DNA from: a virus
Lineage: Duplodnaviria > Heunggongvirae > Uroviricota > Caudoviricetes
IMG/VR virus record: IMGVR_UViG_3300045988_150439
Reading direction: 5' to 3' (one strand)
DNA length: 64,000 nucleotides
Shown: positions 9,442 through 19,640 of the stretch, piece after piece
How positions within the stretch are numbered: the first letter of the stretch is position 1
Layout: every line of letters begins with the position of its first letter
Made by a program: the position numbers and the translations under genes
The notes under the pieces: model-generated
What the model was told of the DNA's origin: nothing
The model's database searches: none
What the model saw: only the letters and a program-made list of their open reading frames with translations

Positions 9442-9640
9442 ACGGGAGAAGGAAACGCTTCATGAAATCAGTAAGTGGCCGGAGTTCCCTGAGTACTGGA
9501 AGCCTAAAACGCGAGCTAAGTTAGAGCGTTTAGGGTTGGTTGCAAACGTTTCTGAAACGTGGTGTTCGGCCAACTACCAGTTAACTGATAAAGGGAAAGT
9601 ATTGCTACAGCAATTAGTAGAATCAGGAGCGTTAAAATGA
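9425..9640 (+). CDS. hypothetical small protein
   Basis: 71 aa ORF overlapping neighbours by a few bases (operon-like packing). Confidence 0.3.
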   Translation: MIVLSKREKETLHEISKWPEFPEYWKPKTRAKLERLGLVANVSETWCSANYQLTDKGKVLLQQLVESGALK

Positions 9641-10854: not shown

Positions 10855-10929
10855 GATGGTGTAGCTCAGCGGTAGAGCAGTTGGCTGTTAACCAACTGGT
10901 CGGTGGTTCGAATCCACCCACCATCGCCA
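10855..10929 (+). tRNA. tRNA-Asn (anticodon GTT)
   Basis: Hand-folded cloverleaf: acceptor gatggtg/caccatc, D-arm gctcagcggtagagc, anticodon loop ctGTTaa, T-arm ggtggttcgaatccacc, encoded CCA. Confidence 0.8.
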
Positions 10930-10932
10930 ATG

Positions 10933-11007
10933 CCGGTTTAGCTCAGTTGGTAGAGCACCTGCCTTGTAAGCAGGATGTCAGCGGTTCGATCCCGTTAACC
11001 GGCACCA
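10933..11007 (+). tRNA. tRNA-Thr (anticodon TGT)
   Basis: Acceptor gccggtt/aaccggc, D-arm gctcagttggtagagc, anticodon stem cctgc/gcagg with loop ctTGTaa, T-loop ttcgatc, encoded CCA. Confidence 0.75.
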
Positions 11008-11026
11008 ACACAACAGGTAAGAGCAT

Positions 11027-11100
11027 TGGGCGAATCGGCGATACTGACCCACAAGCCCGTAAATCGATAGAGTCAGACCAGTGCTCTTACCGTTGTGAGG
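11027..11100 (+). repeat. long-range hairpin element ending in cttaccgttgtga
   Basis: gtaagagcattgg pairs with ccagtgctcttac (one G-U) enclosing about 48 nt; not foldable as a tRNA. Confidence 0.4.
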
Positions 11101-11156
11101 AAGTGCAGCTCTTTGAAGCAACCAGAAGATAAGCATCTGGCTTCACAACACAACGA

Positions 11157-11219
11157 TAAGATCATTACGGTTAATCGTCGTTCATGTGCACAATGACTGG
11201 TCGAAAGGTAGTGATCTTA
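11157..11219 (+). repeat. long-range hairpin element ending in cttaccgttgtga
   Basis: taagatcattac pairs with gtagtgatctta (one G-U); same 3' tail as the element at 11027-11100. Confidence 0.4.
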
Positions 11220-11327
11220 CCGTTGTGATGAATGCACAGGCTGATGTGCCGCAACTACAGTAGTGCGCGCTTTGCGGGGCTTGCTACAACCCTGTGTCGG
11301 AGTTCAGCACCGACCATCACAATAGCT

Positions 11328-11414
11328 GGAGAGTAGGGAGCATGGTGCTCAAGCGGTCTTGAAAACCGTCCCATTGCGCAAGCGATGATGGTTCGATTCC
11401 ATTACTCTCCGCCA
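11328..11414 (+). tRNA. tRNA-Ser (anticodon TGA), long variable arm
   Basis: 87 nt; acceptor ggagagt/actctcc, anticodon loop ctTGAaa, long extra arm, T-loop ttcgatt, encoded CCA. Confidence 0.7.
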
Positions 11415-11417
11415 GAC

Positions 11418-11493
11418 ACAGCGTTGAGCGGTTTGGCCTTTTAATCACCCAGATTAAGACTCCGCTAACATAAACCAGACCGCTCAACGCTGT
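11418..11493 (+). repeat. long-range hairpin element immediately 3' of tRNA-Ser
   Basis: acagcgttgagcggt (11418-11432) is the exact reverse complement of 11479-11493. Confidence 0.45.
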
Positions 11494-11567
11494 GATAGAC
11501 AATTACGGCAGACGTTCTTAACCATAGCTTGCTAACATCCTAGCAACACTTTTTTTCAGCGCAAAAT

Positions 11568-11592
11568 TCAAAGGGGCTTCGGCCCCTTTTCT
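11568..11592. terminator. bidirectional Rho-independent terminator
   Basis: GC hairpin aaaggggcttcggcccctttt with A-run before and T-run after; lies between the tRNA block and the 3' end of the minus-strand gene 11593-12804. Confidence 0.6.
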
Positions 11593-12804
11593 TCAAAAAA
11601 GTTTTATAAATTCATAATTCTGGTCAATTAAGGATTCAATACACACCATGCAAAAATCTACATCGTTAAAATCAGGTGTGTAATATTCATCCTCATAACA
11701 TTCATTTAGACCTTCAATCAATTTTTCTTTAAAAACTCCCCACGTTTCAATATGAACCATTTCCATATAAGGCGCATGTGTATGTACTTGCAATACATCC
11801 CAGGTGTCTATAACCTCGATCCGCGGCTTGCAATTAATTTTTTCTAAATATGCCCTCCCAGAATTGTAAATTTTCGACATTGATGCCCCAAAACCTGATG
11901 GTTGGTAATGAGTGTAAATGTCATAAATTTTTTGTCCTATTCTAGGGAGTTGAGAAGCATTGGATATTTGTGGCGAATGAAAGTATCGCTCTATGGAAGA
12001 AAACGCAGAAACATTAACTAGAGTAATCGTATATGGTGCTAAAGTTCTCTCGTTCAAATTTCTACATAAAATAGCAAACCCATGGCTATTAGTCTTTTCA
12101 CCGTCTGAGGACATTTTTGCCATGCTGGCTTTAATAACATTCAATTTCGAATGTAAACGAGAAGTGGAAGTCGGTTGATTATACATTTCATCATCATACA
12201 AACATATATGAAACCCGCCAAGATGACGAAATGAGAACTTGAGTGCTTCTTCCGCAATAACTAATTTATTAATATCTAAAGGAGTAAGTGATACGTTACC
12301 TTGTAAATCATAGCAAGGTTCTAAACATAGAAAGTTTTTCTTCTGCCACACAATCATATTAAAAATAAAGTGTCTAACCAAAGGTGGCCAGTCAGGTGAT
12401 ATAAGTACATTGGTAATATCTCCATCAGACAAGTATGACAAGTAACTTTTTAGTTCCGCAGCATATGCCACTAGCTCAGTTCCAGCTTCCCTTGTTGGTG
12501 TTGAAAAATTTTTTAACTCAATAAGAACTAAGGATTCATTCTCTGTTGAATAAGCAACGACATCAGGTCTTAATATCTCAGATTTTGTTGCTGAGATATT
12601 TTCATCATCTGTCATTAAATGTAACAATGTTATATTCTTTAAACAAAACTGATAACTCTCCTTAATTTTTTTCTCTTCGGGTCTTTTCGGATTAAATTCA
12701 TTTAATTTATCAATATTGATGATTGAATTATATAATCCATCTTGATCAGATAATTTGTCAATTATCCAATTTTGCATTTCCTTTTCGCTTAAAAATATTG
12801 ACAC
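11593..12804 (-). CDS. PD-(D/E)xK nuclease-like protein, putative (second gene of an AT-rich two-gene module)
   Basis: 403 aa; N-terminal region carries a PD-x14-ExK arrangement (RPDVVAYSTENESLVLIELK); GTG start with GGAG RBS; strongly AT-rich; 26 bp downstream of its partner. Confidence 0.4.
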   Translation of the reverse strand: MSIFLSEKEMQNWIIDKLSDQDGLYNSIINIDKLNEFNPKRPEEKKIKESYQFCLKNITLLHLMTDDENISATKSEILRPDVVAYSTENESLVLIELKNFSTPTREAGTELVAYAAELKSYLSYLSDGDITNVLISPDWPPLVRHFIFNMIVWQKKNFLCLEPCYDLQGNVSLTPLDINKLVIAEEALKFSFRHLGGFHICLYDDEMYNQPTSTSRLHSKLNVIKASMAKMSSDGEKTNSHGFAILCRNLNERTLAPYTITLVNVSAFSSIERYFHSPQISNASQLPRIGQKIYDIYTHYQPSGFGASMSKIYNSGRAYLEKINCKPRIEVIDTWDVLQVHTHAPYMEMVHIETWGVFKEKLIEGLNECYEDEYYTPDFNDVDFCMVCIESLIDQNYEFIKLF

Positions 12805-12830
12805 TAATTAGGCTCCCGTTAAACCAAAAA

Positions 12831-13652
12831 TTAAAAATCTTGCTTTACTTTATCCATAGTCAGAATTTTGCTAATAATTGAAGATTCAAATCCATCTAAA
12901 CCTGAGAGAAAGTTAATTAGCTTTTGGATATGTTGTTCTTTAGGTATAAGTATATATTTTATATCATTGAACTCAAAATCAATGCCAAACTTTGAAAATT
13001 TTGAGCTAATTTTTGCTTTGTCATCAGAAGTGATAACACGCTCCAAACTCAGACTAGGCCATAAATCACCAATAAAAGGAGCTGGCACATAACGCCACTC
13101 TTTCTCGTCTGCATATATATAATTCTCTATTGTTTTATTATCTTTTCGCTCTAGCTTGCCTCTGTAATTTTTCATATAACGCAGTAAATTATATAGATCA
13201 GAATATTCTGCTTTCAATTTCTCAAACTCTATTCTGTTTTTGGTATCTAAATTTCCTCTAGCCTTCCAAAGCGGCACCAACTTTTTTTTAATAAGTCGAA
13301 TTCTGGCATTGTATTTAGAAAATATTTCACTGCTCTTATTCATATATAGAACTGGGTGTAGACCTTTCTTTTCCGCCCAAGACTTAGTTAGCCCAAGACC
13401 GAATTCCCCATATTTTCCGCTATGATCTCTGATTTGTGATAGTTTTATGTCACAAAACGATACCATTGGTACTGCAAACCTCCTGCGTCCCCCGACTCCT
13501 CTTATTTCCTCGCGAGCAAGAAATGGTTTAAAATATTTCTCAGCCAATATGCTATAGAAAGCATCTTCGTTTTTTGTAAAATGAAACAACGTGGTTGGAT
13601 GAAGACTATAAACAGATTCAACATTCGCATCAGGATTTTCAAGGATAGTCAT
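12831..13652 (-). CDS. Abi-like hypothetical protein (first gene of the AT-rich two-gene module)
   Basis: 273 aa from the ATG at 13652 (RBS aaggtg); AT-rich, Lys-rich; gene sizes and order resemble two-gene abortive-infection modules such as AbiGi/AbiGii, but this is an unverified recollection. Confidence 0.35.
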   Translation of the reverse strand: MTILENPDANVESVYSLHPTTLFHFTKNEDAFYSILAEKYFKPFLAREEIRGVGGRRRFAVPMVSFCDIKLSQIRDHSGKYGEFGLGLTKSWAEKKGLHPVLYMNKSSEIFSKYNARIRLIKKKLVPLWKARGNLDTKNRIEFEKLKAEYSDLYNLLRYMKNYRGKLERKDNKTIENYIYADEKEWRYVPAPFIGDLWPSLSLERVITSDDKAKISSKFSKFGIDFEFNDIKYILIPKEQHIQKLINFLSGLDGFESSIISKILTMDKVKQDF

Positions 13653-13801
13653 TTTACACCTTGTGGAAAGCCAGTTTAGTTCTGTAAATAGTATCACACG
13701 ACAGGCGGCTATTCTTCTATCAATAAAGGATAGGTAAGCACTTACTTTTTACGCGCGTTAATTGTATAGTTCTTTCGGATACTCACTTGAAAGGACTCAA
13801 T

Positions 13802-13945
13802 ATGGGAAATAAATGTAAACATGCGCGTCGCGCATCTCGTCAGGTGCAGAAGTCAAATCCATACATTCACGAGCACTACCACCTCAGCTCTTTCACTAAC
13901 CGCTACACGTTCCCCAGCGAAGCGCATAACGAGGCAAGGCAATGA
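13802..13945 (+). CDS. small basic protein (47 aa), putative
   Basis: ATG with aagga RBS; stop overlaps the start of the glutaredoxin gene (ATGA), suggesting translational coupling. Confidence 0.25.
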   Translation: MGNKCKHARRASRQVQKSNPYIHEHYHLSSFTNRYTFPSEAHNEARQ

Positions 13946-14187
13946 CGATCACTATCTACGGACGAGATAACTGCTCATACTGCAAACGTGCGGTCGAGCT
14001 GGCGAAGCAACTAAAGGGACATGGCTACGGTGATTATGAGTACATCGACATCACCACTGCCGGTATCGACAAGAAAAAACTAAGTGAAATTGTTGGTAAA
14101 CCGGTAGAGACTATCCCCCAGGTACTGATCGATGGCCAACCGATTGGCGGATACACAGAATTTGCTGCTTTTGCGAGCACTCTGTAA
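13942..14187 (+). CDS. glutaredoxin (NrdH/NrdC-like redoxin)
   Basis: 81 aa with CSYC active-site motif in the thioredoxin-fold position (YGRDNCSYCKRA). Confidence 0.65.
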   Translation: MTITIYGRDNCSYCKRAVELAKQLKGHGYGDYEYIDITTAGIDKKKLSEIVGKPVETIPQVLIDGQPIGGYTEFAAFASTL

Positions 14188-14282
14188 TACAATACGGCTC
14201 CTTTTGGGGCCATTTATTATTTGTAGCTTTCATCAGCACAGCGTACACTTAGTTACGAGCCATTGAGTAGTTAAGAGGTTTT

Positions 14283-14891
14283 ATGCGTTTAGAAAATTGC
14301 CTAGAAGATATGAGTGTCATTAGCAATGCCCTTGCTACTGTGACCTCTAACGCTTCACGCTTTTCAAACGCAAAGCCTACAGCTAAATCTGGGCGTGATT
14401 TTATTGAACCGCGTGGATATCGACGCTTCCGTGGCACGATGAAGCCCTCTGCGAAATTCACAGGATTCAAAACACAAACCTATGTGAGCACTGCGGCTAT
14501 TCCTGTTCAAGAGAACCGCGATGCGGCACAGCTGGCAAAGATTGAAAGCAAGCTCGCAAAATTGACGGCGAAACACGTTCGCTTAGCCCATGCCATCTCT
14601 GGATGGAAAGCGGAAAAGATTCGCAGCAACTTCGGTGAAAGTCGTTACGAAGAACTGAAGAACGTTGACCTGACCATTCGTGGTTTGGAGGGATTCGTTA
14701 ACAAGTTGATTCGCGACTCTGAGCAACCTCATCCATATTTGAAACGCTTGAGCGATTCTGTAACTGAGTATCGTTTAGCTATCTCTGATCTGCTATTGAT
14801 TTTAAATCAGTGTTTTAACGACGTAAACGTCATCGAATCGCAGACTGGCCTCATTGATGAGGACGTCTTCGCCAACTTCTCATTCCATTGA
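14283..14891 (+). CDS. hypothetical protein (possible antitoxin-position partner of the YafO-like gene)
   Basis: 202 aa ORF with aagagg RBS, ending 10 bp before the YafO-like gene; no recognised fold. Confidence 0.4.
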   Translation: MRLENCLEDMSVISNALATVTSNASRFSNAKPTAKSGRDFIEPRGYRRFRGTMKPSAKFTGFKTQTYVSTAAIPVQENRDAAQLAKIESKLAKLTAKHVRLAHAISGWKAEKIRSNFGESRYEELKNVDLTIRGLEGFVNKLIRDSEQPHPYLKRLSDSVTEYRLAISDLLLILNQCFNDVNVIESQTGLIDEDVFANFSFH

Positions 14892-14900
14892 GGTTGAACG

Positions 14901-15311
14901 ATGAAGATCACATGGAACAGTGATAGTTACGCCCAATTTTTAAAGCCGACCTTCGATATAAAGCCTGACTTAGAGATTACGTTACTCAACGATTTCAAGT
15001 CGTTTAAACAAGGCATGTACCCAGCCCTATTCGGCAAAGATGGCCCGTATACGGCTCCTGGTGCTATCGTGTCCTCCCGCGTTTATCACGTTCATCTCTT
15101 GTTCACGAAGCAAGAACGAACCAGCAGCCGCAGCAGATTCAATTGCACAAGCGACCGTGCACTCGTTTACAGTCAACATGCACATTTCCAAGATGTGTAT
15201 AGCCTATTGGCAATCTTCCCTAACAACGCACATCAGTACGCGAAAGATCCAAAAATTATGGTCGATATCGCTGCCTACGCGGCCGCATTTCAAGCTCTCA
15301 CTAACCCTTAA
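14901..15311 (+). CDS. YafO-family toxin-like protein
   Basis: 136 aa; segments FGKDGPY...VYHVHLLF, RALVYSQHAHF and LLAIFPNNAHQYAKD...AAYAAAF parallel E. coli YafO as recalled from memory (not searched). Confidence 0.45.
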   Translation: MKITWNSDSYAQFLKPTFDIKPDLEITLLNDFKSFKQGMYPALFGKDGPYTAPGAIVSSRVYHVHLLFTKQERTSSRSRFNCTSDRALVYSQHAHFQDVYSLLAIFPNNAHQYAKDPKIMVDIAAYAAAFQALTNP

Positions 15312-15353
15312 CAATCATATTAATAACGCCTCAGAATTTAAATTCCTCCCTTA

Positions 15354-15386
15354 AATGATTCCATACCTACTATGTATGGAATCATT
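15354..15386. repeat. lox/FRT-like recombination site candidate (13-bp perfect inverted repeats, 7-bp spacer)
   Basis: aatgattccatac-ctactat-gtatggaatcatt, about 100 bp upstream of the tyrosine recombinase gene. Confidence 0.5.
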
Positions 15387-15484
15387 ACTAAAAATGAGTT
15401 ACTTTGACTCTTGATCCTATAAGAATCTATGCCTAATATACTGTTTACTTATACAGTGTATCGGCGTAACTCGGTGATTGTCAT

Positions 15485-16588
15485 ATGAAAAATAGCTTTG
15501 ACAGAGCACGCGCAGCGGAGAACACCTCAAAAGAGGCGATTGAGTATCTCGAAAGAGCATCTCAAATGCAGGCCGTTATGATCTCGCAGGTTAGCAATGA
15601 CATGAGATTCTCAGACGCATTCATGTTATTCACTCGCTTATCTCTGCTAATAACAAGACGTCGGCCAGAGATCGCTGTTCACTGTATTTTGATACATGTT
15701 TTGCCGCACATTGCTGATGTAAAAGTAAGTGACATTAATAGGTTCATGGTGAACCAACTGGTCAACCCACTAATACTGGATGGCAAAATTGTTATGGGCC
15801 GCCGCGTTTTCTCTCTGATGAAGCAGTTCCTTAGCTGGTGCGCCTTCCAGGGGATGATAGACGTGTCACCGTTAAACGATATGTCACTTAACAAAGTTGC
15901 CGGTGGCGCAAAGCCCACACCTCGCGAGCGGAAGCTGACCGACGCAGAGGTATGGGTGTTCTGGAATATATGGGACTACTTCAATGTGTGTGCTGGTACA
16001 AAATGGGCGGCAAGGCTATGTCTTGTATCCGCAAGACGACCTGATGAAGTACTGCGGGCTAAAAAAAGTGAGTTCAATCTTAAGCGTGGGGTTTGGAATC
16101 AAGGCAAAAGAAACAAGTCAGCACGTGAGCATTCGCTGCCTTTAAGCACATTAATGCGCACATGCATTGAAGAGTTGTTCGAATACGGTAAAGATAGCCA
16201 GTGGCTCGTTCCTTCGAATAAAAAAATCGGGAAAGACCTTCCTATGTCTAAAGTGGCAATAGCCCAGGCATTACGTCGTATTCTGGAACGACCAGAACTG
16301 ATGGAGCTTGAGCCATTTACACCCCGAGATTTGCGCCGTACTGCGCGTAGTTACTTCCCAGCATTAGGCATAAGCCAGGAGGTATCACGTAAAATCATGA
16401 ACCACAGTCTTGAGGGGATAGATCGGGTCTACGACCGGCACGATTATATGGACGAGATGCGAGACGCCTTAGAAAGTTTCTCGACGTACATCGCATCAAT
16501 CGTAGAGCAACCGGATTTAGACGAAATTGACCACAAATTTAAGGGAGATCGTCTATCAACAGAGCTTATTCGTGTAAATTTTTCATAG
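15485..16588 (+). CDS. int: tyrosine recombinase / phage-type integrase
   Basis: C-terminal catalytic region with ARLCLVSARRPDEV (Arg box), TPRDLRRTARSY and NHSLEGIDRVYDRHDY (His/Tyr box); true start may be internal to the listed ORF. Confidence 0.65.
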   Translation: MKNSFDRARAAENTSKEAIEYLERASQMQAVMISQVSNDMRFSDAFMLFTRLSLLITRRRPEIAVHCILIHVLPHIADVKVSDINRFMVNQLVNPLILDGKIVMGRRVFSLMKQFLSWCAFQGMIDVSPLNDMSLNKVAGGAKPTPRERKLTDAEVWVFWNIWDYFNVCAGTKWAARLCLVSARRPDEVLRAKKSEFNLKRGVWNQGKRNKSAREHSLPLSTLMRTCIEELFEYGKDSQWLVPSNKKIGKDLPMSKVAIAQALRRILERPELMELEPFTPRDLRRTARSYFPALGISQEVSRKIMNHSLEGIDRVYDRHDYMDEMRDALESFSTYIASIVEQPDLDEIDHKFKGDRLSTELIRVNFS

Positions 16589-17531: not shown

Positions 17532-19640
17532 ATGTCTAAAAAACGTTCCATCAAAGAGGTTCAGGACTTCCGTGACAGTGTAAAACGAGTAGTCGCTCTC
17601 CTTTCAGGCAAAAACATCCCTGTTGCAGAACGAGGGGACGACGCTTATGTACGCTATAACGATGATGGAGAGCCAATTCTCGTAAACATCCCATCAATCC
17701 CGGATAACGCAACACCGGCATTGATGAATGCTGTGCGCGGATTTCTCGATCATGAGGTTGCTCACATTTTGTTTACCGATATTCGTGTGTCCAACAAAAT
17801 GAGAGAAAAAGGACGCGTTCCTTCCTGGTCGCTATGGAATGCCTTAGAAGACGTGTTCATCGAGCGAAAAATGGGTCAGGTCTTTAACGGAACAAGACGT
17901 AATCTGATGGCAACTCAGCGCCTTATAATCGAAAAAGTCTTTAAACCAAAGGCTTCAGAGGCTATTGCTTATTGTGGCAAAGATCAGCGCGCGCTTTTTC
18001 TAAACTTCTTTCTCTGTCCGGTTGTAAGAGCCTGGGATGGCCAAGCACCGTTCGTAGATTTCATGGATGAATATTGGCCTGTCATTGAGAAACCAATTTC
18101 ATTATTAAAAGAACATGGTATCGATGTGGCCATGCGTAACATGTCTTGCACCGAGGATTGTGTAAAGGTGGCTGCGACCATAGCTAAGATCCTCAAAGAC
18201 ACTGAAAGTGAAAGCAAAGGTAAGGAGTCAGCTCCGGGAAAAACTTCCGATCCTTCAGACGCTGACCAGACGGATGCCTCTGGAGAAAATAATGAAGATA
18301 ACGAAGATCATGAGACACCCTCAGCGTTAGATAATCACAAATCTATCAAATCAGAATCACACAGTAAGCACAAACATGATAATAACGACAGTGATGATTC
18401 AGATAATTCTGAATCATCAGAAACAATATTCAATGATACAGAAAATGATAAAGAGGTATCAGATTCTGATGCTTCTGATAACGCGGCGTCAGAATCATTA
18501 ACCGCTGACCACGAAAAAAGAAAAACGACAGAAGACGGCTCTTCAGATATTCCAACTCCGTCAAAAATGAGTCTGGAAGAGGCTTTAGAGGTGCTGGATA
18601 GCATAGAAGATGAAGTCGGAGGCATGACAGAAGATGCTCTATCCGAAACGATTAAAAGCGAGTTAACAGAAAGCTCGAAAAGCGAATACAGGCCATACAA
18701 TCGCTCATACGACTTCATCGGCTCGATTGATCAGGCAGAAGCCCATATCAAACGGCTTATTAAAACATTCTCCGATATTGATTTAGGTGGATATCCAATC
18801 AGCCGTTATCGCATCGTTCCTGAAGGCAACCAACTCTTCGACAAATATATTGAAAAGCACCTTTCGTCAGGTGTTTCGTCGACGCTGGCAAAAGACCTGG
18901 AACGTGCAATAGCAAGCAGAAACAGAGTTCAGTTTATACCTGGCCAGCGTCGGGGGCGCATTCATGGTTCAAGTATCTACAGATTAACAATGAATGATGA
19001 TCGCGTGTTTCGTAAAAAAGAAGAATCTAAAGCCGTTAACGCCTGTGTTCAACAAGTGATTGATTTATCGGGTTCAATGAGTGGCGAAACGATAAAACTA
19101 GCTCTTGCAAGTGCATATACCATCGCCGATGCACTTGATCGAATAAATGTTCCCAACATTATCACCGGCTTCACTACATTTGGCAATCATATGGCAGCAG
19201 GAGAACTTAAGGCTATCAAATATGAGTTCTCTCGCTTTGAATCTTTAATGCTACCTATCATCAAAAATTGGAATGAAAAAGCAAATTCTCGCGAAGTTCG
19301 CTCACGTATGGGGTGCGTAGGCTACACATTCCCACTTCTTAATAACGTGGATGGTGAAAGCATAGCCAGCCTTGCATCGTTATTTTCCGGTCGCTTGGAG
19401 GACAGGAAGATCATGCTTGTTCTGAGCGATGGCGAGCCGTGGGCTGTTGGGAGAGGTTTTGACGCTCATTTGCGTTCGGTTGCGAAGCAAATTGAAACGC
19501 AGACTGACATTGATTTGATGGCAATTGGCATCATGACTGACGCACCGGAGAGATTTTACTCAAATCATGCCCTGGTAACGAGCGTTGATAGTCTTGGTTC
19601 ATCTGTAGTTACTGAACTATCTCGTATCATTTTGAAGTAA
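17532..19640 (+). CDS. von Willebrand factor A domain protein (CobT-like), with acidic low-complexity linker
   Basis: 702 aa; MIDAS motif DLSGSMSG in the C-terminal vWA domain; long D/E/S-rich middle region; paired with the downstream AAA ATPase. Confidence 0.55.
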   Translation: MSKKRSIKEVQDFRDSVKRVVALLSGKNIPVAERGDDAYVRYNDDGEPILVNIPSIPDNATPALMNAVRGFLDHEVAHILFTDIRVSNKMREKGRVPSWSLWNALEDVFIERKMGQVFNGTRRNLMATQRLIIEKVFKPKASEAIAYCGKDQRALFLNFFLCPVVRAWDGQAPFVDFMDEYWPVIEKPISLLKEHGIDVAMRNMSCTEDCVKVAATIAKILKDTESESKGKESAPGKTSDPSDADQTDASGENNEDNEDHETPSALDNHKSIKSESHSKHKHDNNDSDDSDNSESSETIFNDTENDKEVSDSDASDNAASESLTADHEKRKTTEDGSSDIPTPSKMSLEEALEVLDSIEDEVGGMTEDALSETIKSELTESSKSEYRPYNRSYDFIGSIDQAEAHIKRLIKTFSDIDLGGYPISRYRIVPEGNQLFDKYIEKHLSSGVSSTLAKDLERAIASRNRVQFIPGQRRGRIHGSSIYRLTMNDDRVFRKKEESKAVNACVQQVIDLSGSMSGETIKLALASAYTIADALDRINVPNIITGFTTFGNHMAAGELKAIKYEFSRFESLMLPIIKNWNEKANSREVRSRMGCVGYTFPLLNNVDGESIASLASLFSGRLEDRKIMLVLSDGEPWAVGRGFDAHLRSVAKQIETQTDIDLMAIGIMTDAPERFYSNHALVTSVDSLGSSVVTELSRIILK

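Follow-up and report, generated by a model that had tools for sequence, protein, structure and literature searches.

The window analysed here, a stretch of 64,000 nucleotides from the tailed-virus record IMGVR_UViG_3300045988_150439, is part of an SSU5-like phage-plasmid of Escherichia coli. It contains two adjacent genes, which raise the question of how a toxin gene of the YafO type can exist without the usual antitoxin YafN, and what the gene standing in the place of that antitoxin may be. The original prediction on this locus, made from the letters alone, offered two answers, a toxin with a novel antitoxin or a domesticated YafO-like protein. In our opinion, which is based on sequence comparison, the two genes probably represent a type II toxin–antitoxin module with a new antitoxin family not belonging to Phd, and the probability of this reading may be put at roughly 0.6. 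The genes, each an open reading frame (ORF) named after the length of its product, are as follows.

14283-14891, plus strand: ORF202, candidate antitoxin gene, 202 amino acids, ATG start, phrog_13546
14901-15311, plus strand: ORF136, YafO-family toxin gene, 136 amino acids, PF13957, predicted RelE/HigB-type (BECR) fold

By its sequence, the product of the downstream gene is a member of the YafO toxin family. A search with hidden Markov models gave a significant match to the Pfam profile PF13957 (YafO_toxin); the score was 77.7 bits (E 7.9e-22), the gathering cutoff is 25, and the match spans positions 2-100 of the 101 in the profile. With YafO of E. coli K-12, BLASTP aligned 110 residues, of which 35% are identical (E 2e-13). 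When 29 sequences representing both subclades of YafO were aligned, the residues K36, Y50, H63, H65, T83, Y90 and H111 proved invariant, and all of them are kept in ORF136. The predicted fold is that of the RelE/ParE-type BECR proteins, with 7–16% sequence identity to HigB, RelE and YafQ-class structures; there is no solved structure of YafO itself. Together, these data bear out the likeness to YafO that had been noticed by eye. Compared with K-12-type YafO, the protein has a 9-residue insertion near the N-terminus and lacks a 3-residue loop. Its score against the NCBIfam YafO equivalog NF007377 is 57.4 bits, below the cutoff of 153, and ORF136 thus falls into a separate subclade and is not an orthologue of the chromosomal YafO of E. 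coli.

The ratio of nonsynonymous to synonymous substitution rates (dN/dS) of ORF136 against diverged homologues is 0.09–0.17. Because all of the invariant residues are retained and selection is so strongly purifying, a domesticated and inactivated YafO is unlikely, and this half of the originally proposed alternative is disfavoured. The family annotation as such is not new, since the Prokaryotic Genome Annotation Pipeline (PGAP) already labels the homologues on about 270 plasmids as "type II toxin-antitoxin system YafO family toxin". Within complete E. coli genomes, all 20 of 20 copies of ORF136 are located on plasmids. A frame of 104 amino acids (15040-15354), which overlaps ORF136 in another reading frame, was also considered as an independent gene and rejected, as the toxin variants P0057 and P0063 are read in this frame owing to their frameshifts.

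As had been stated, YafN is indeed missing. ORF202 gave no BLASTP alignment with YafN and no match to PF02604, the hhalign probability against a YafN-type profile was 0.13%, and tblastn with three YafN-type antitoxins revealed no YafN-like gene anywhere in the window. By eye, the end of ORF202, DEDVFANF, looks like the C-termini of YafN-type proteins (DDDFNDF, DELDDF and KDLTEF), where an acidic run is followed by a hydrophobic-x-x-F pattern. Homology with YafN, or a shared tail motif, was rejected on the basis of the same profile-profile probability, and the resemblance is kept only as a lead. By these sequence criteria, ORF202 is unrelated to YafN and Phd.

The description of ORF202 as a protein of unknown fold in the place of YafN turned out to be accurate. 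Sequence searches of Pfam, NCBIfam, PADLOC and PDB gave only sub-threshold noise, and fold searches returned only generic helical bundles. The sole end-to-end match was found in PHROGs, to phrog_13546, a family of unknown function. An exhaustive profile search among 1.84 billion representative proteins yielded 11 representatives at 50% identity, all of the same family, and no deeper homology beyond it; at 90% identity the family comprises 26 clusters. It is an orphan family confined to Enterobacterales, and its members share the following architecture (numbering of ORF202).

Residues 1-28: conserved N-terminal helix
Residues 29-75: hypervariable basic disordered linker
Residues 76-180: conserved region, three-helix bundle
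Residues 181-202: conserved acidic/aromatic C-terminal tail, ESQTGLIDEDVFANFSFH

Variation in linker length leads to proteins of 162–217 amino acids. Most of the family's invariant columns belong to the tail motif ESQTxxIDxxxFxNF[ST]FH, even at 29% identity. In an AlphaFold2 model, residues 3-25 form a helix and residues 26-74 are disordered; three helices follow at 75-178, and the tail is modelled with low confidence. The predicted local distance difference test score (pLDDT) is about 80 in the bundle and 62 overall. The dN/dS of ORF202 is 0.19–0.20 as a whole, 0–0.09 in the N-terminal helix, 0.08–0.26 in the tail and 0.4–0.8 in the linker, from which it follows that the gene is real and under constraint, with relaxation in a single segment.

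Could this frame be spurious or decaying, and stand beside a solitary YafO-like gene by chance? The absence of any family or fold relative and the predicted disorder of half of the model might be taken as hints of this kind. Against them stand the full-length conservation of ORF202 across genera at a dN/dS of about 0.2, the end-to-end match to phrog_13546, the ribosome-binding site and spacing conserved in more than 35 loci and the persistence of the conserved motifs down to 29% identity, and such an explanation is effectively refuted.

Start sites of the partner are inconsistent in public records, where forms of 136, 148 and 150 amino acids are found on more than 130 contigs of Klebsiella relatives. 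In Klebsiella, the full frame of 201–205 amino acids is open and has a good ribosome-binding site despite the shorter annotations, and in pKPHS1 the gene is annotated at full length. The N-terminally truncated partner of 136 amino acids (on 117 contigs) was considered as a distinct form and discarded as a matter of start choice in annotation, since the full frame is open in CP040447.1.

The two genes are closely linked. In each retrieved locus, a toxin of the ORF136 subclade is immediately preceded by a homologue of ORF202, with a spacer of 9–12 nucleotides, and the converse holds as well; this strict arrangement holds for more than 35 loci in about 9 unrelated genomic contexts. Among the IMG/VR loci, both genes are full length and exactly 9 nucleotides apart in 26 of 27. 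The pair was found in phage-plasmids of E. coli, Kluyvera, Klebsiella, Enterobacter and Citrobacter, in the chromosome of Brenneria and on contigs of Samsonia, Pectobacterium and Pantoea. In the chromosome of Erwinia sp. JUb26, it is situated alone between a gene of an AsnC-type regulator and genes of HNH and short-chain dehydrogenase proteins, and in the chromosome of Pluralibacter between amn and cobW/dksA-like genes. These solitary copies among housekeeping genes indicate that the pair moves as a unit. The cassette occurs on roughly 270 sequenced SSU5-like phage-plasmids, mostly from clinical Klebsiella, Enterobacter, Citrobacter and E. coli, and the 1,029-bp pair itself shows 99.5–100% identity in thirteen E. 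coli plasmids, each of about 110 kb.

Partner and toxin co-diverge, as their identities drop together from locus to locus (92/92, 68/77, 60/71, 50/74, 43/52 and 41/52%, partner first). A third component was sought among the reverse-strand genes lying downstream (a colicin E1 immunity-like gene in Klebsiella and an HNH gene in Erwinia) and rejected, because these genes differ between hosts, are mutually unrelated and are missing from the window; the module consists of two genes. Members of the canonical YafO clade have a Phd-type antitoxin of 95–97 amino acids upstream, with overlapping stop and start codons. Thus, the YafO family presents a clean exchange of antitoxin families between subclades, one chromosomal and paired with YafN, and the other mobile and paired with ORF202.

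The signals around the genes are listed below.

14196-14221, plus strand: terminator-like hairpin GGCTCC-TTTT-GGGGCC with a T-rich tail, after the gene grxA, which parts the pair from this upstream gene
14221-14249, plus strand: promoter-like element TTGTAG, 17 nucleotides, TACACT, with 8 of 12 consensus matches, read from the sequence
14273-14278, plus strand: ribosome-binding site AAGAGG of ORF202, conserved
14890-14893, plus strand: ribosome-binding site GAGG of ORF136, overlapping the TGA stop of ORF202, 7 nucleotides before the ATG

With 8 matches, the promoter-like element is below the threshold of 9 used in the promoter scan and was not reported by it. The element has the consensus TTGTMG, 17 nucleotides, TAMACT across copies of the cassette, and the chromosomal copy of Erwinia keeps it as TTGTCG, 17 nucleotides, TAAACT. 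There is no terminator between ORF202 and ORF136, and the two genes are presumably co-transcribed. From the TGA stop of ORF202 to the ATG of ORF136 there are 9 nucleotides, close to the 10 bp first given. The genes share a reading frame, in which the stretch TGA GGT TGA ACG contains two in-frame stops. The placing of the toxin ribosome-binding site over the ORF202 stop (stop-plus-GG) is kept in all diverged loci and fits translational coupling. An RNA antitoxin of type I or III was rejected, since neither an Rfam match nor a tandem repeat was found.

Natural variants of the cassette also bear on function. Frameshifted toxins (P0058 and P0059) stand beside an intact partner of 205 amino acids in many contigs of Klebsiella phage-plasmids, and in another locus (L054) a deletion removes the toxin gene beyond codon 4 and leaves the partner intact; in Acerihabitans, both genes are degraded. 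Recurrent loss of the toxin with retention of the partner is what a harmful downstream gene with a protective upstream gene would be expected to produce. Taken together with strict linkage, co-divergence and the mobility of a cassette with its own promoter-like element, this repeated loss is the reason why a toxin with a novel antitoxin, the first of the two alternatives proposed originally, is favoured here. Comparative genomics supports this alternative, with the activity deduced from it and with two natural counter-examples.

The counter-examples open a list of points that weigh against an antitoxin role of ORF202. In the E. coli record CP059990.1, ORF202 has acquired a stop at codon 122 through a 3-nucleotide deletion, after which comes a pair of +1/-1 indels; the toxin frame is intact and differs only by the polymorphisms L43I and A125T. 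In Klebsiella pneumoniae RDAV01000003.1, a 2-nucleotide deletion in the linker splits ORF202, and the toxin is again intact. Polarity on the coupled toxin, a functional fragment, neutralisation in trans or sequencing error could account for these plasmids. Other points are of a structural nature. No helix-turn-helix (HTH), ribbon-helix-helix (RHH), AbrB or Phd domain was found in ORF202 by Pfam and NCBIfam, and ORF202 exceeds its toxin in size, which is unusual for an antitoxin; the overall confidence of its model is low, as the value of 62 indicates. Upstream of the pair there is no clear conserved operator repeat, only weak direct repeats that are not conserved, and without a DNA-binding domain in ORF202 the typical type II autoregulation is unsupported. 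In a PLSDB sample, both genes are annotated in 60 of 60 records, a figure that refers to annotation and not to full-length status. Binding through the tail is suggested only by sequence conservation and by the short likeness to the YafN C-terminus, the latter being unsupported by the profile comparison. Finally, the sequence comparisons show the family and predicted fold of the toxin, the novelty of its partner and the strict linkage, joint divergence and mobility of the two genes, while the toxicity, neutralisation, binding interface and biological role of the pair are properties that we infer.

As for the lesion in CP059990.1, it forms a tight cluster of three indels at positions 2860-2910 of locus L015, equivalent to 14647-14690 of the window. 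Its dismissal as general assembly noise was considered and not adopted, because 5 of 6 gap positions in a 3.2-kb alignment fall in ORF202. Two independent short-read contigs from other samples (L016 and L017) stop exactly at the first affected base of this lesion, and such ends suggest an assembly-graph branch, that is, two alleles in one sample.

The same broken plasmids are a main argument for a view in which ORF202 is no antitoxin at all but an obligate co-factor, regulator or adaptor of a weakly toxic or non-toxic YafO-like protein. Residual toxicity would then be held by low expression or by cross-neutralisation by a chromosomal YafN of the host, and the pair would serve the phage-plasmid itself, for example in RNA processing during host takeover or in lysis–lysogeny control. 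The lack of the usual antitoxin DNA-binding folds, the size of ORF202 relative to the toxin and the neighbourhood of an integrase and an HTH repressor-like gene agree with this, as does a global RNA-seq comparison that placed YafO of K-12 with the weakest cleavers; the mechanism of this toxin is debated (PMC8546651). Nevertheless, we regard this view as unlikely. Strict linkage in chromosomal sites without any phage-plasmid context speaks against a role specific to phages; in ORF136, strong purifying selection and the invariant His, Lys and Tyr residues suggest retained catalysis; recurrent inactivation of the toxin beside a retained partner is expected if the downstream gene is harmful; and with only 35% identity between ORF136 and K-12 YafO, cross-neutralisation by YafN is doubtful.

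If the pair is a type II toxin–antitoxin module, it would operate as an autonomous bicistronic unit. Free ORF136 would be an active endoribonuclease of the YafO family with the BECR fold, and cleavage of mRNA by this enzyme would lead to translation arrest. ORF202 would be made first from the common transcript, translation of the toxin being coupled to it via the stop-overlapping ribosome-binding site, and would bind ORF136 directly and thereby neutralise it. For this binding, the C-terminal helical bundle together with the acidic/aromatic tail (...D-E-D-V-F-A-N-F-S-F-H) is the most likely element, because conservation concentrates there. Toxin-binding segments of many antitoxins are unstructured on their own, and the tail of ORF202 is predicted to be the same. 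Owing to its long, basic and disordered linker, ORF202 would be readily degraded by proteases. On an SSU5-like phage-plasmid, the module would kill or arrest the cells that lose the element (post-segregational killing), and its position in an accessory hotspot beside abortive-infection (Abi) genes implies that it may also act against infection by competing phages.

This position is defined by the neighbouring features.

10855-11414: three tRNAs
11593-13697, minus strand: pair of genes for a 403-amino-acid protein and an AbiGi-like protein
13942-14187: grxA, gene of the glutaredoxin GrxA
15485-16588: tyrosine recombinase gene (integrase, PF00589), 3' of the toxin pair
Beyond the tyrosine recombinase gene, minus strand: HTH repressor-like gene
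17532-19640: gene of a CobT/VWA protein of 702 amino acids, after the HTH repressor-like gene

A recombination gene thus follows the pair, as originally predicted. The segment between the tRNAs and the integrase (about 11400-15480) is a hotspot of accessory genes in SSU5-like phage-plasmids, and its content varies among relatives. It contains the AbiG-like pair, grxA and the toxin pair in the window; PhoH, gp49-like, grxA, the toxin pair and a colicin E1 immunity-like gene in pJN2-26; an upstream AbiH in locus L056; and two hypothetical genes without the toxin pair in phage Cyrano. The 3-kb stretch around the toxin pair is 98% identical to Escherichia phage CMS-2020a, and its flanks are common to Cyrano. 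Some close relatives, such as Cyrano and PhiR41_1, lack the cassette, and others carry it.

Such surroundings make it necessary to consider the pair as an abortive-infection system directed against phages or other competitors, and not as an addiction module. ORF202 would then be a sensor-antitoxin: a protein of the invader would bind it, modify it or trigger its degradation, possibly via the linker, and the YafO-type RNase set free would halt translation before the invader replicates. Several facts are in line with this, namely the location of the pair in the variable, accessory part of the element that separates the tRNA cluster from the integrase, the Abi neighbours in the window (AbiGi-like) and in L056 (AbiH) along with PhoH and gp49 in pJN2-26, the presence of the cassette in some close relatives and its absence from others (Cyrano and PhiR41_1), and the linker being the only fast-evolving part of ORF202 (dN/dS 0.4–0.8, variable length). 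BECR toxins are known effectors of defence (PMC11980606). On the other hand, neither ORF202 nor ORF136 has a match in PADLOC-DB v2, the dN/dS of the linker below 1 means relaxed constraint and not demonstrated diversifying selection, and the copies of Erwinia and Pluralibacter lie among housekeeping genes, outside defence islands. We consider a primary role in abortive infection to be rather unlikely, while noting that at the molecular level it is compatible with the toxin–antitoxin reading, from which it differs in the trigger alone. The more specific suggestion that ORF202 founds a new class of sensor-antitoxins, with the bundle and tail caging a YafO-type RNase and proteins of rival phages recognising, cleaving or modifying the linker, is speculative and decidedly unlikely.

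Some features of the neighbourhood deserve attention in their own right. The AbiGi-like protein of 288 amino acids matches Pfam PF10899 (E 5e-25) and PADLOC AbiGi (E 6.5e-47), and the 403-amino-acid protein beside it has only a weakly HSDR_N-like N-terminus and no AbiGii match; these two genes may constitute an abortive-infection system of the AbiG type whose second component has diverged. The CobT/VWA protein has a long acidic central region rich in Ser and Asp, is variously called a cobalamin or porphyrin biosynthesis protein in related phage-plasmids and shows a weak match to DrmE in PADLOC (E 2e-4), which is probably noise.

The 13-mer AATGATTCCATAC occurs in five exact copies, at 9636, 10648, 15354, 15374 (minus strand) and 21405 (minus strand), against a chance expectation of about 0.002. 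Single copies extend to AATGATTCCATACATC[TA]CAT, and in the interval from the toxin stop to the integrase start, two copies make up a 16-nucleotide inverted repeat (15354-15386). The copies flank the variable tRNA-to-integrase segment on both sides, and their arrangement is kept in Cyrano and other relatives, independently of the cassette content. This repeat could be a site of the recombinase or the repressor, or a boundary of the cassette.

Returning to the toxin–antitoxin module, it should be said which of its elements were known before. Nothing is new in the toxin family or its annotation, in the order of the genes or in the principle that partners can be swapped. PF_YafO is a recognised family of BECR type II toxins with the order antitoxin then toxin (PMC11980606), and exchange of the antitoxin family with preservation of the toxin family is an established type II pattern (PMC3141249; PMC10790755). 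Leplae et al. (2011) found YafO-superfamily toxins paired with Phd and also with guilt-by-association antitoxins, and reported YafO on neither plasmids nor phages (PMC3141249). For YafO_toxin, the later SLING survey of E. coli gave 13 clusters of partners, and only 8% of these were already known (PMC10790755). Growth arrest via mRNA cleavage was shown only for YafO of K-12, and the ribosome dependence of this toxin is disputed (PMC8546651). No publication describing the ORF202-ORF136 pair or naming the partner family was found in the literature. What is new is the recognition of the partner as a distinct orphan family of characteristic architecture, strictly linked to the toxin, as well as the split of the YafO family into two antitoxin-paired clades and the documented natural genotypes that bear on function.

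YafO is among the least understood mRNA-interferase toxins of E. coli. With the ORF136 subclade, another YafO system becomes available, one that is carried by plasmids and has a different putative neutraliser, and a comparison of YafN with ORF202 could define the functional surface of the toxin. The ORF202 family would be an example of antitoxins recruited from outside the classical DNA-binding folds. From a practical point of view, a provisional name and a corrected start site could be assigned to the "hypothetical protein" upstream of such YafO-family toxins. Should the cassette stabilise its elements or exclude phages, it would matter for the persistence of resistance-carrying phage-plasmids and for phage therapy directed at their hosts. 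Should the sensor-antitoxin idea be true, it would represent an uncatalogued abortive-infection system of phage-plasmids against rival phages, and the YafO family would have gained, apparently from no known family, an antitoxin without a DNA-binding domain.

One of the closest known systems is YafN-YafO, encoded in the dinB-yafN-yafO-yafP operon of E. coli K-12. Both pairs have a toxin of the PF13957 family with the invariant K, Y, H-x-H, T, Y and H residues, the antitoxin gene preceding the toxin gene and tight spacing; the acidic run followed by hydrophobic-x-x-F at the C-termini of both partners is an anecdotal likeness. However, ORF202, with its 202 amino acids, is unrelated in sequence and profile to the Phd/YefM-type YafN of 97 amino acids, the genes are separated by 9 nucleotides instead of having overlapping stop and start codons, and the present pair resides on phage-plasmids, whereas YafN-YafO belongs to the SOS-regulated dinB operon. 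Other ribosome-associated mRNases with the BECR fold, those of the HigBA, RelBE and YafQ-DinJ systems, are neutralised by antitoxins with HTH or RHH domains, none of which is detectable in ORF202. Phd-Doc of the phage-plasmid P1 is likewise a two-gene toxin–antitoxin cassette on a plasmid-prophage and differs in both the toxin family (Fic/Doc kinase) and the antitoxin family (Phd). Its established role is post-segregational killing (PMC7969092), and by analogy ORF202 and ORF136 could stabilise their phage-plasmid in the same manner.

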